Shown here piece by piece: positions 14,726 through 17,355 of a stretch of 17,536 nt of DNA (its first letter is position 1; every line of letters starts with the position of its first letter). The notes beneath the pieces are model-generated. The model was not told the DNA's origin and made no database searches. It saw only the letters and a list, made by a program, of their open reading frames with translations. The DNA comes from a virus (Duplodnaviria > Heunggongvirae > Uroviricota > Caudoviricetes): the IMG/VR virus record IMGVR_UViG_2648501186_000010, positions 1-17,536 of that record, one strand, 5' to 3'. A program made the translations under genes and the position numbers.

Positions 14726-15229
14726 TCACATCAGGCCGGTGGCGTTGGTTGTGACCAGCTCCACCGCCGCAGCCAGAACAGGCGCAGAGTGAATACGGCT
14801 TTCAACGGTATAAGCCAGCACGGATAAGCTACGGATTGCATCGCGGGCACGATCCAGAATTTGAGTACGGCGGGCGGCAGTCATATAGCCAGTTGATACG
14901 GCTTCCCCAGCAATCGCGCCCACACTGGCTGTGGCACTCAGTGCGCACAACTGCATGTTGCCTTCTGTGGCATTGTTCACCGGCACGGATGGAAGGCAGT
15001 TAATCTGACCTAACATCCCATCAAGCAAACGCGCATCTTCGGTGTAATCCGTGATAGCCAAAAGCTCATCACAGGTCAGGCGGTGCGGTTGTGCTGGGTT
15101 CAGTTTGTTGCGCAGGATCTGCGGCCTCATACCAACGGCAGCGGCCACATCTTCAAGATTGTGCTCAATTGCAAATGCTCGGCAAGCCGCATCAAAGTGC
15201 GCATGTTTAGAGGTCTGGTAATCAAACAT
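14726..15229 (-). CDS. cII: CII-like transcriptional activator (phage 186 CII family)
   Basis: N-terminus MFDYQTSKHAHFDAACRAFA closely resembles my recollection of 186 CII (MFDFQVSKHPHYDEACRAFA), with similar length (167 aa). Sits between apl and the early genes; GGGAGAGG RBS. Confidence 0.8.
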   Translation of the reverse strand: MFDYQTSKHAHFDAACRAFAIEHNLEDVAAAVGMRPQILRNKLNPAQPHRLTCDELLAITDYTEDARLLDGMLGQINCLPSVPVNNATEGNMQLCALSATASVGAIAGEAVSTGYMTAARRTQILDRARDAIRSLSVLAYTVESRIHSAPVLAAAVELVTTNATGLM

Positions 15230-15259
15230 TGTTTGCCTCTCCCGAATCCGTAGGATGGA

Positions 15260-15481
15260 TTACGCGTTAAGCGAAATGTCACATTCGCTTAAAGCCTGAA
15301 TAGTGAGCGCGGCCATGTTGACTTCGACCAAGCCTTTCTTCTGCTTACCCTTCGGCTTAATAGGTAATTTCCCGTATTCGATCAGGTTCCTGGCGGTTTC
15401 TTTGTTGGTACCAGTACGGCGGCAATACTCGTCTAAAGGCAGGTATGGCTCAGGGATGATGATTGTAATGTTCGGACGCAT
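15260..15481 (-). CDS. apl: Apl/Cox-type excisionase and switch regulator
   Basis: 73 aa from ATG 15481 (GGAG RBS). First gene of the operon divergent from cI; small basic protein with HTH-like segment (TGTNKETARNLIEYGKLPIKPKG). Confidence 0.7.
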   Translation of the reverse strand: MRPNITIIIPEPYLPLDEYCRRTGTNKETARNLIEYGKLPIKPKGKQKKGLVEVNMAALTIQALSECDISLNA

Positions 15482-15502
15482 GAGGCAAACTCCACAAGTT
15501 AA

Positions 15503-15520
15503 CCTGTACGGCAATACAGG
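15503..15520. promoter_or_regulatory. Inverted repeat CCTGTA-N6-TACAGG in the switch region (operator candidate; also fits CTGT-N8-ACAG)
   Basis: Perfect 6 bp arms. Sits between TTAACC (15500..15505) and TTATAT (15523..15528), which have -35/-10-like spacing on the plus strand toward cI. Confidence 0.3.
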
Positions 15521-15566
15521 GTTATATAAGGCAACATTCAAAATATGGAGCCAGATTAATTCGCGT

Positions 15567-15596
15567 TTCGAGAAGTGTCAATTTTAATTTCTCGAA
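15567..15596. promoter_or_regulatory. Perfect 8 bp inverted repeat TTCGAGAA-N14-TTCTCGAA overlapping a minus-strand TTGACA hexamer (candidate pR operator)
   Basis: Arms at 15567..15574 and 15589..15596. The spacer contains tgtcaa (15576..15581), i.e. TTGACA on the minus strand, a plausible -35 for the apl/cII operon. Lies 21 bp upstream of the cI start. Confidence 0.35.
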
Positions 15597-15616
15597 TCGA
15601 GACTTATGGATTCGCT

Positions 15617-16198
15617 ATGAGCACATTTAAAATCGACCTAAACGTAGATAGCACACCGATTCTTGACAGGGTGATCGAGGCTTACGGATTTACGCAGAAG
15701 TTACAGCTCGCGGAACATCTGGACATGGCAGCCAGTTCTCTTTCTTCACGCTACAAGCGTGGAGTTTTCCCGGCAGACATTGTCGTGAAATGTGTAGCCG
15801 AAACAGGCGCTAATCTGGAGTGGCTGGCGACAGGACAGGGACGTAAATTTAATGATGATGAATTAGACATACTCAAAATACCGCGCAGCAAGATTGTTGA
15901 TGGCCAACTCTATGACGCTGGCACACTTATGCTTGATAAAGTCATCTTCCTGCCTGGTAAGCCCTTACCGCAACAACCGATTTGTGTTCTGGATGGCCTT
16001 GTTCAGTACATTGTTGACCAGTCTTATTCTGAAGTTTATGACGATGATTGGTTGGTTGAAGTTGAAGGAAAAACAAGCGTCCGCACTCTTACACGGATTC
16101 CGGTACGAAAAGTCAGAGTTAGCGGTGTTGGTATGGCATTTGATTGCGGAATTGACGACATAAAAATCATAGGCCGCGTTGTTCTGACGATAAAATAA
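15617..16198 (+). CDS. cI: CI immunity repressor (phage 186 CI family)
   Basis: LDRVIEAYGFTQKLQLAEHLDMAASSLSSRYKRGVFPADIVVKCVAETGANLEWLATGQG matches my recollection of the 186 CI N-terminal HTH domain; C-terminal FDCGIDDIKIIGRVV also matches. ATG 15617 gives 193 aa (186 CI is 192). Stop is 1 nt before the int ATG. Confidence 0.85.
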   Translation: MSTFKIDLNVDSTPILDRVIEAYGFTQKLQLAEHLDMAASSLSSRYKRGVFPADIVVKCVAETGANLEWLATGQGRKFNDDELDILKIPRSKIVDGQLYDAGTLMLDKVIFLPGKPLPQQPICVLDGLVQYIVDQSYSEVYDDDWLVEVEGKTSVRTLTRIPVRKVRVSGVGMAFDCGIDDIKIIGRVVLTIK

Positions 16199-16199
16199 A

Positions 16200-17240
16200 A
16201 TGAGCGTTCGTAAACTTCCTACAGGCGAATGGATCGCCGACTTCTACACCGTCAACCGCAGTAATGGCAAGAACGGGAAGCGTATACGTAAAAAATTTGC
16301 CACGAAAGGGGAAGCCCTGGCATTCGAAAACCATACGCTTCAGAAAGTAGACGCAGCTCCGTGGCTGGGTGAAGGGAAGGACAAGCGAACTTTAATAGAT
16401 CTGATAACAATGTGGTATGAACGCCACGGCGTAGCTTTGAGCAATGGCGAAAAGCGTAAAAATGCTATGACCTGGGCGGCGGAATGCATGGGATTCCCGC
16501 TGGCCACAGAATTTAATGCCCAGTTGTTCACAGCCTACCGCGCTAAAAGGCTGGATGGGCATTATGCCCGTACCAACAGAGTATCTAAGGTTTCCCCGAA
16601 AACTATGAACCTTGAACATGCTTACTTCCTGGCTATGTTCAACGAGCTGAAACGGATTGGTGAATGGTCAGCACCCAACCCACTAGAAAACGTCAGACAG
16701 TATCGTACTGATGAAACCGAAATGGCTTTCCTCACTACCGAAGAAATTGATCGGCTTTTACTGGAATGCAAACGAAGTAAAGTTAAGTACCTAGAATTAG
16801 TTGTCAAAATCTGCCTTGCTACCGGCGCAAGGTGGAATGAGGCGGCAACGCTGAAAAGCTCCCAGATCGCCGGGGGTAAAGTCACGTTCGTCAAAACCAA
16901 AGGGAAGCGCAACAGAACAATTCCCCTTGATGATGAACTTCTGTCCGAATTGCCTGAAACAAAAGGCGCTCTGTTCCCCAAGCCCTGCTACAACGCTTTC
17001 CGCTCTGCTCTGGAACGTGCAGGCATTGAACTCCCCTCCGGCCAGCTTACCCATGTACTGCGCCATACATTTGCCAGCCACTTTATGATGAACGGCGGAA
17101 ACATTCTGGTTCTGCAAAAAATTCTCGGCCACGCTGACATCACTATGACAATGCGTTATGCCCATTTCGCCCCAAGCCACCTTGAAGATGCCGTGCGACT
17201 TAACCCCTTAAAATGTCGCAAAAATGTCGCGACAGCTTAG
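16200..17240 (+). CDS. int: Tyrosine recombinase / phage integrase (P2/186 Int family)
   Basis: 346 aa with C-terminal catalytic motifs (LRHTFASHF...ILGHADITMTMRYAHF). Immediately downstream of cI, as in 186. Confidence 0.9.
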   Translation: MSVRKLPTGEWIADFYTVNRSNGKNGKRIRKKFATKGEALAFENHTLQKVDAAPWLGEGKDKRTLIDLITMWYERHGVALSNGEKRKNAMTWAAECMGFPLATEFNAQLFTAYRAKRLDGHYARTNRVSKVSPKTMNLEHAYFLAMFNELKRIGEWSAPNPLENVRQYRTDETEMAFLTTEEIDRLLLECKRSKVKYLELVVKICLATGARWNEAATLKSSQIAGGKVTFVKTKGKRNRTIPLDDELLSELPETKGALFPKPCYNAFRSALERAGIELPSGQLTHVLRHTFASHFMMNGGNILVLQKILGHADITMTMRYAHFAPSHLEDAVRLNPLKCRKNVATA

Positions 17241-17355
17241 AAATACTGCCGAATACTCACAGATATTAACTAACGTAACTTATTGATAACACTGTAAGTT
17301 ATTGTTTTTCGTAGATAGTTGATGCTTTATAATATAGCCTGTGCTATATCTGTAT

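Follow-up and report, generated by a model that had tools for sequence, protein, structure and literature searches.

Coliphage 186 (Eganvirus, Peduoviridae) carries a lysis-lysogeny switch that is a standard model for transcriptional interference and for repression through a wheel-shaped repressor oligomer, and that has been studied almost entirely in this one phage. At the lytic promoter pR, three operators for its CI repressor follow one another at intervals of two helical turns. Two distal CI sites, FL and FR, sit about 300 bp from pR (PMC3675496). The 186 Apl protein binds direct repeats spaced by 10–11 bp, both between pR and the lysogenic promoter pL and at the attachment site (att), and efficient binding depends on three adjacent sites (PMC7498355). 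Face-to-face early promoters are also found in the Pe-Pc switch of phage P2. The C repressor of P2 is a small protein of about 99 amino acids and of unrelated origin. Its binding sites are two direct repeats, and P2 lacks cII (PMC3448106; PMC1904268); the P2 promoters are combined with Cox, an excisionase-repressor whose direct-repeat arrays likewise occur at the switch and at att (PMC7498355; PMC3448106). We investigated positions 15482–15616 of a 17,536-nucleotide stretch of tailed-phage DNA (the whole of this stretch of IMG/VR record IMGVR_UViG_2648501186_000010, hereafter the window). These positions are exactly the 135 bp that separate the ATG of an apl-like gene (15481, minus strand) from the ATG of cI (15617). 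In our judgement the region, with the whole layout proposed below, is quite probably the lysis-lysogeny switch of a 186-type prophage with its own immunity specificity. Its only feature without a described counterpart is a covarying hairpin that holds a predicted Apl operator in its loop; the rest is an ordinary, well-understood phage control region.

The prophage is P2-like, is integrated beside mntS in Escherichia coli, and was present in 29 of 5426 complete genomes. In ten strains, among them E. coli CM2010-0578/1, the identity of this region was at least 99%. When phage records were searched by megablast, no near-identical record was found and the best match covered only 90 nt; thus, the window is not 186 itself. 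The two genes that border the region are the following.

15617–16198, plus strand: cI immunity repressor gene (193 amino acids), assigned from its Pfam domains, its identity to 186 CI and the RefSeq name 'phage repressor protein CI'
15260–15481, minus strand: apl/cox-like gene (73 amino acids, MRPNITI...), first in the lytic operon, assigned from PHROG 575

The product of cI has both Pfam domains of 186 CI, Phage_CI_repr (PF07022, E = 6e-23) and Phage_CI_C (PF16452, E = 3.5e-31), and is 45% identical to it across 94% of the length of 186 CI. The apl-like product matched PHROG 575, 'Cox-like excisionase and repressor' (E = 1.5e-27), and had no Pfam match; the gene was kept in about 395 loci. 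With 73 amino acids it differs from 186 Apl, which has 87. The strand opposite to cI also encodes a 186-type CII (Pfam Phage_CP76, E = 1.8e-46) and a Fil family protein. The resulting order, int-cI on one strand and apl-cII-fil on the other with the integrase gene downstream of cI, is that of 186, and the preliminary description of this DNA was right, on gene order, domains and CI identity, to name the region the immunity switch of a 186-type phage. Unlike P2, the prophage has cII and a repressor of 186 CI type. Because CI is only 45% identical to that of 186 and the operator sequence is another one, immunity should be distinct from that of 186.

The preliminary description had centred on two perfect inverted repeats. 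Dyad 1 consists of TTCGAGAA (15567–15574) and TTCTCGAA (15589–15596), 14 nt apart, with a minus-strand TTGACA (15581–15576) in the spacer; dyad 2 consists of CCTGTA (15503–15508) and TACAGG (15515–15520), 6 nt apart, between the plus-strand hexamers TTAACC (15499–15504) and TTATAT (15522–15527). All of these elements were found at the positions given there. When the 135 bp were shuffled with dinucleotides preserved, a perfect inverted repeat with 8-nt arms and a spacer of 0–20 nt appeared in 3.7% of the shuffles, and one with 6-nt arms and a spacer of 3–10 nt in 21%. Both dyads are therefore only mildly unusual within a single sequence, and the case for their function rests on comparison with relatives. 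About 395 related loci were gathered from genomes, viral contigs and metagenomes, with CI and several Apl-like protein variants as queries, and all were set in the orientation of the window. The GenBank record of 186 was the mapped reference; it annotates pR, pL, the CI and Apl sites, FL, FR, the establishment promoter pE and the CII site.

Predicted opposing early promoters

The hexamers predicted for the two early promoters are these.

15576–15581, minus strand: TTGACA, predicted -35 hexamer of the lytic promoter (pR equivalent), present in the sequence and conserved in relatives
15553–15558, minus strand: TAATCT, predicted -10 hexamer of the lytic promoter, conserved in relatives, with a predicted start near 15546
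15463–15468, plus strand: TTGTAA, predicted -35 hexamer of the lysogenic promoter (pL equivalent), inside apl codons 5–7, assigned from its invariance and the 186 pL offset
15486–15491, plus strand: CAAACT, predicted -10 hexamer of the lysogenic promoter, 4 nt upstream of the apl ATG, assigned from the conservation of CAnnnT and the 186 pL offset, with a predicted start near 15498

Of 188 distinct switch regions, nearly all had a minus-strand TTGnnn in the corresponding position, 17 bp from TAnnnT. TTGACA was invariant inside the immunity group of the window, and relatives carried TAATCT, TAACCT, TAGCCT or TAGAGT at the same relative -10 position; the spacer was 17 bp long in 136 of 187. The minus-strand TTGACA, earlier called promoter-like, thus corresponds to a -35 hexamer conserved in relatives. 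A lytic promoter made of TTGACA (15581–15576), 17 bp and TAATCT (15558–15553) would drive apl-cII-fil. Its -35 hexamer lies 36 bp from the cI ATG, compared with 15 bp in 186. Just downstream of the predicted -10 hexamer, at 15547–15550, GGAG (plus strand; CTCC on the minus strand) was conserved across immunity types. It is a conserved G+C-rich discriminator and start region, and it is wrongly placed for a ribosome-binding site of cI.

For the opposite transcript, TTAACC and TTATAT had been proposed as the promoter hexamers between which dyad 2 is placed. They were not conserved in relatives, TTATAT is the degenerate middle unit of a three-unit repeat array (see below), and they would leave only about 12 bp between the two starts. 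A more probable lysogenic promoter is TTGTAA-17-CAAACT, as the conservation of these hexamers suggests. TTGTAA was unchanged in all 132 distinct sequences. Codons 5 (ATT) and 6 (ACA) of apl showed no synonymous change in any of 145 variants, while codons 2, 3, 4, 7, 9, 10 and 12 varied freely. The predicted -10 hexamer always read CAnnnT (CAAACT in 105 sequences, CAAAAT in 19, and CATCAT or others in 8), and it is separated from TTGTAA by 17 bp. In the annotated pL of 186 the -10 hexamer, CATGAT, precedes the apl ATG by 4 nt and the -35 hexamer, TTGCGA, occupies nucleotides 14–19 of the open reading frame; the hexamers of the window lie at identical offsets.

A lysogenic promoter at these positions, which relative to apl are those of pL in 186, would face the lytic promoter. 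The two promoters therefore most likely stand face to face, as had been proposed: the conserved hexamers predict opposing starts near 15498 (plus strand) and 15546 (minus strand), about 48 bp apart. The corresponding distance is 62 bp in 186, and 40–60 bp separate the starts in P2-like phages. By homology with 186, a weak lysogenic promoter with starts at this distance would suffer interference from lytic transcription until CI represses the latter.

Predicted CI operators and Apl repeats

Two operators for CI were predicted by comparison with the relatives.

15560–15574, no strand assigned: predicted CI operator O1, TTCGC-GTTTC-GAGAA, which fills the 17-bp spacer of the lytic promoter and whose right half is TTCGAGAA
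15589–15603, no strand assigned: predicted CI operator O2, TTCTC-GAATC-GAGAC, upstream of the lytic -35 hexamer, whose left half is TTCTCGAA

The two sites lie 29 bp apart, centre to centre. If they are read correctly, dyad 1 is not one operator; it is made up of one half-site from each of two neighbouring 15-bp CI sites (TTCnC-N5-GnGAA), namely the halves that face each other. Dyad 1 had been placed over the lytic promoter as a single N14 dyad, and of this claim the connection with the repressor stood and the single dyad did not. TTCGAGAA was found only at the two places of dyad 1 in the whole window, and the idealised 15-mer TTCTCGAWTCGAGAA, with up to three mismatches, matched only O1 and O2 in the 17.5 kb. 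A repeat finder lengthened dyad 1 to 18-nt arms with 83% complementarity.

The element in the lytic promoter spacer was repeated upstream of the -35 hexamer, with at least 10 of 13 positions identical, in 62.5% of 160 distinct regions and in 5.8% of shuffles, and the second copy was most often 28–29 bp away, centre to centre. Among 100 relatives with two copies, the orientation was direct in 44 and inverted in 56. Since a unit of 13–15 bp repeats two or three times, both directly and inverted, the unit is the 15-mer and not the N14 dyad. Moreover, two variants of the same immunity group have TTTAGCGAA in O1, by which the symmetry of dyad 1 is lost and a perfect TTCGC-N5-GCGAA is gained. Within this group the operator arms were conserved, and 15583–15588, between the -35 hexamer and O2, varied freely. 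An RNA hairpin of dyad 1 in the cI leader was also considered and rejected: the plus strand folds (z = -3.98), yet the direct orientation in 44 of the 100 relatives implies that no RNA structure is conserved there.

The annotated sites of 186, to which the preliminary description had already pointed for comparison, agree with these operators as well as with the pL offsets. The geometry of O1 and O2, 5-bp half-sites with 5 bp between them, is that of the annotated FL and FR (TTCAC-N5-GTGAA), and the spacer of the annotated pR is likewise filled by a palindrome. By analogy, the lytic promoter would be silenced by CI bound at O1, within the promoter spacer, and at O2, next to the -35 hexamer on its upstream side.

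The operator element differed between lineages (TTAGATAATATCTAA, TTCGACTTAATCGAG and ATCGTATTAAGCGAC are examples), and both copies changed together. Each helix-turn-helix variant of CI was matched by one operator family: the variant of the window occurred in 25 loci, and every one of them carried TTCGCGTTTCGAGAA or a close derivative. This prophage family thus comprises dozens of natural immunity types that share one layout, and the one-to-one pairing of CI variant and operator is material for a specificity code of the repressor family. The operator spacing of about 29–33 bp differs from the value reported for 186 and bears on the wrapping of DNA by the CI wheel.

Further CI sites were sought by scanning each of 94 loci for 15-mers that resemble its own operators, with positions counted from O1. 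Third copies at -31 to -34 were frequent (54 found, 2.2 expected), and in most relatives this third copy overlaps the third Apl repeat. Own-operator-like 15-mers were also enriched at -350 to -250 (35 found, 5.3 expected) and at +250 to +350 (28 found, 4.7 expected). By their distance of about 300 bp, these two distal classes across the family would mirror FL and FR of 186. One candidate for the window is given here.

15261–15275, no strand assigned: TACGCGTTAAGCGAA, an FR-like candidate for a distal CI site, which lies 299 bp from O1 at the stop codon of apl and has one mismatch to TTCNC-N5-GNGAA

The match of TACGCGTTAAGCGAA was not significant alone, and its assignment as an FR-like CI site is tentative because the stretch is constrained by apl coding and common to other immunity types. 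The inverted repeat at the 3' end of apl (15267–15292) was tried as an FR equivalent too and was rejected, its sequence being identical in all immunity types.

Two arrays of short direct repeats were predicted as binding sites of the Apl/Cox-like protein.

15509–15538, plus strand: CGGCAATACA, GGGTTATATA and AGGCAACATT, direct repeats at a 10-bp period between the predicted promoters, taken as probable Apl/Cox operators and found by autocorrelation and weight matrix
17242–17271, minus strand: second triple array (AGTTAATATC, TGTGAGTATT, CGGCAGTATT), predicted Apl sites of the attachment arm, starting two bases after the int stop codon

The 8-mer at the start of the dyad 2 loop recurred at +10 (mean identity 0.62) and +20 (0.64) against a background of about 0.25, and nothing recurred at +30 or -10; TTATAT (15522–15527) is the middle unit of this array. 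A weight matrix was built from the relatives only, leaving out the window, which was then scanned for three units at a 10-bp period along with 100 shuffles. The switch array ranked first (32.3 bits) and the array at 17242–17271 second (24.8 bits); the best shuffle reached 17.4 bits. The sequence of the repeats followed the Apl variant (GGCAATA, GCCAATA or GCAACATTC, and TCTATTTG in more distant relatives). An array between the early promoters together with another after int is what would be predicted for Apl/Cox binding sites, and direct-repeat sites of the recombination directionality factor occupy the same two places in 186. The three GGCAATA-type repeats between the starts would bind the Apl/Cox-type excisionase-repressor, and the set beside int, probably an excisionase site of the attachment-site arm, would serve excision. 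The window has three such repeats at the switch, in contrast to seven in 186. Their number also varied among close relatives: locus L075 has one GGGCAATAAT unit more than L055, L184 has four CAACATTC units, and L203 is another example. The array thus grows and shrinks by whole 10-bp units.

A hairpin kept by compensatory changes

Dyad 2 lies between the two predicted starts and shares its loop with the first Apl repeat.

15503–15520, no strand assigned: dyad 2 hairpin with a 6-bp stem (CCTGTA/TACAGG) and a 6-nt loop (CGGCAA), recognised by covariation

Relatives have other stems at this place, such as CCGATA/TATCGG, TGGATA/TATCCA, CTGACA/TGTCAG, CCACA/TGTGG and TTGAATG/CATTCAA, while the loop stays (C)GGCAA or a close variant. 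Covariation was examined in 108 distinct 30-mers anchored on the loop motif, with column shuffles and slid partners as controls. The stem cells were paired in 89.1%, compared with 61.9% in column shuffles and 27–42% with slid partners. Changes on both sides were seen at all seven pairs, 250 cells were doubly changed (86 in shuffles), and the covariation score was 0.79 against 0.29. In the enlarged set, 139 of 146 distinct 30-mers formed the hairpin, and at each of the five inner positions 134–138 of these 139 were Watson-Crick paired. Dyad 2 is therefore a conserved hairpin kept by compensatory changes. The predicted folding energies are -7.3 kcal/mol (plus strand) and -7.9 kcal/mol (minus strand).

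The stem was independent of the proteins of the switch. One stem was seen with at least six operator types and with two Apl types, one operator type was seen with several stems, and stems varied among phages with identical Apl recognition regions. This independence of CI and Apl type indicates that no sequence-specific protein reads the arms and that selection acts on the pairing. Nor did the left arm prove to be an inverted Apl site, a candidate that was rejected because no similarity beyond the stem was found in the other Apl groups. Distant relatives keep three Apl repeats without any dyad; the hairpin is thus accessory to the switch and does not belong to its core. In 186 it has no counterpart.

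As to where the hairpin would act, it lies 2–6 nt downstream of the predicted lysogenic start and 9 nt upstream of the apl Shine-Dalgarno sequence. Placed in the middle of the predicted overlap of about 48 bp between the convergent transcripts, it would be contained in both. The apl-transcript strand was for a time favoured by an early count of 4:0 for A:C over G:T mismatches (G.U on the apl strand); this became 5:3 with the 395 loci, and the assignment was dropped. At the thresholds of the scan, no intrinsic terminator was found on either strand in 15200–15900, and a T run after the stem occurred in only a few relatives; a search of 15100–15750 against Rfam 15 gave no match up to E = 10.

We consider that the hairpin would form a separate layer, most likely acting in RNA, with the first Apl site as its loop. 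For its role we favour two guesses: it may stabilise the cI transcript at the 5' end, or it may be an element of the apl leader. In E. coli, 5'-terminal stem-loops stabilise mRNAs, the ompA leader being an example. Dyad 2 resembles these stem-loops in that it is short, lies a few nucleotides from the predicted 5' end of the cI transcript, and is conserved in structure and not in sequence. It differs from them in lying also inside the convergent apl leader, so that the analogy, which depends on a predicted start, is one of several candidates. A bolder version is that the hairpin is a dedicated part of the switch, absent from the described P2- and 186-type switches; we regard this as rather unlikely. 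On one option, a hairpin in the nascent RNA would limit backtracking or set a pause, and would so bias the head-on collisions and the promoter occlusion between lytic and lysogenic polymerases. On the other, a 5' stabiliser would raise the output of CI from a weak promoter. As the loop is the first Apl operator, a single element of 18 bp would be recognised by the excisionase in DNA and would act through RNA structure while it is transcribed. This small conserved hairpin between the convergent promoters may tell whether RNA structure plays a part in interference or in the stability of the repressor mRNA.

Alternative readings and flanking elements

One alternative takes each perfect dyad as one operator, dyad 1 being a single site for CI or Apl and dyad 2 a repressor site within a lysogenic promoter TTAACC-17-TTATAT. 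In its favour, every sequence was found as described. The centres of the two inner half-sites of dyad 1 are separated by 22 bp, close to two turns of the helix, and no other part of O1 or O2 is as well conserved. TTAACC-17-TTATAT, for its part, scores 7 of 12 consensus positions, equal to the TTGTAA/CAAACT candidate. It is the relatives that make this arrangement improbable. At dyad 1 they repeat the 13–15-bp unit two or three times, in direct (44) as well as inverted (56) orientation, and TTTAGCGAA in O1 of some members of the same group breaks the perfect repeat and yields a perfect TTCGC-N5-GCGAA. At dyad 2 the arms vary with compensation across at least six operator types and two Apl types, so the proposal that dyad 2 is an operator did not hold. 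TTATAT, moreover, is without the A that -10 hexamers conserve at position 2, relatives having GGCAATA or similar in place of TTATAT, and starts about 12 bp apart would be unusual in a phage group where 40–60 bp is the rule. Nor do we expect the contrary view to hold, namely that dyad 2 has no function of its own and owes its symmetry, as a by-product, to the Apl array or to neighbouring signals. Apl repeat 1 does include the loop and the first two positions of the stem, distant relatives do keep the repeats without the dyad, and a 6-nt inverted repeat arose in 21% of shuffles of the 135 bp. The left arm, however, lies outside the array, and yet its changes go along with those at the variable linker positions of repeat 1. 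A side effect would also have to account for two-sided changes at seven of seven pairs, for 250 doubly changed cells against 86, for slid controls of only 27–42%, and for Watson-Crick pairing at the five inner positions in 134–138 of the 139 hairpin-forming variants.

A third reading makes dyad 2 a box for LexA, the repressor of the SOS response, by which the switch would sense DNA damage directly; we give it hardly any credence. The half-site geometry to which the preliminary description had drawn attention, CTGT-N8-ACAG, is present at 15504–15519, and the outer six bases of each half are identical to those of the sulA box. The heterology index was computed with a matrix from 25 accepted E. 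coli LexA sites, and its values are approximate. The index of about 13.0 is better than the median of random CTGT-N8-ACAG sequences (16), but it lies inside their range and is slightly worse than that of the weakest of the 25 accepted sites (12.2). Most related stems (CCGATA, TGGATA, TTGAATG and others) have no CTGT/ACAG, and their representatives scored 27–45. Complementarity is thus conserved and the LexA motif is not, which makes LexA unlikely as the conserved function and at best marginal in this phage. SOS induction of 186 acts through the LexA-controlled antirepressor Tum, which is encoded elsewhere in the genome. Were a LexA site placed over the lysogenic transcript, induction would lead to more CI, so that the effect would have the wrong sign.

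Several observations nevertheless weigh against the 186-type layout that we prefer, with opposing promoters, two CI operators, an Apl array and a hairpin. A consensus promoter scan of 15200–15900 gave nothing above its thresholds, both predicted promoters being weak matches to the consensus. The invariance of TTGTAA and CAAACT may have its source elsewhere, for example in the region of translation initiation, in the spacer of the Shine-Dalgarno sequence or in a GGCAAAC site resembling those of Apl. In fact, CAAACT overlaps the apl Shine-Dalgarno sequence and spacer region, so that its conservation has more than one possible cause, and a weaker autocorrelation peak at -25 fits an Apl-like GGCAAAC site. 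The window shows two recognisable operators 29 bp apart, unlike the three described for 186, and the third copy that most relatives have 31–34 bp on the other side of O1 was not recognisable in it. Of the distal sites, the FR-like candidate is confounded by apl coding, and a search of the window for an FL-like site found none. Close homologues of the Apl type of the window (64–82% identical) occurred in only four sequenced phage isolates, with three further matches at 41%. As for the hairpin, internal single mismatches split into five lineages with A:C and three with G:T, both strands fold equally well, and distant relatives manage without it.

Outside the 135 bp, three further elements were observed. 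At the start of cII, 15203–15229, ATGTTTA-N13-CAAACAT shares the 7-N13-7 geometry and near-identical half-sites with the annotated CII binding site of 186; by this analogy, a CII-activated establishment promoter (pE) probably reads from the start of cII through apl towards cI. At the 3' end of int, 17210–17230, AAAATGTCGC is present twice with an 11-bp period. These copies may be arm-type sites of the integrase, though they are unlike the 186-type arm consensus quoted in PMC3448106. The last apl codons (LSECDISLN), at 15267–15292, contain a perfect 9-bp inverted repeat, TTAAGCGAA-N8-TTCGCTTAA, with predicted energies of -12.4 kcal/mol on the plus strand and -13.8 kcal/mol on the minus strand (z about -4 to -5). 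Some relatives show compensatory synonymous changes in it (AGC/TCG to AGT/TCA), and mismatches that are G.U on the apl-sense strand outnumber those of the opposite kind by 67 to 25, a hint that an RNA hairpin forms where apl adjoins cII.

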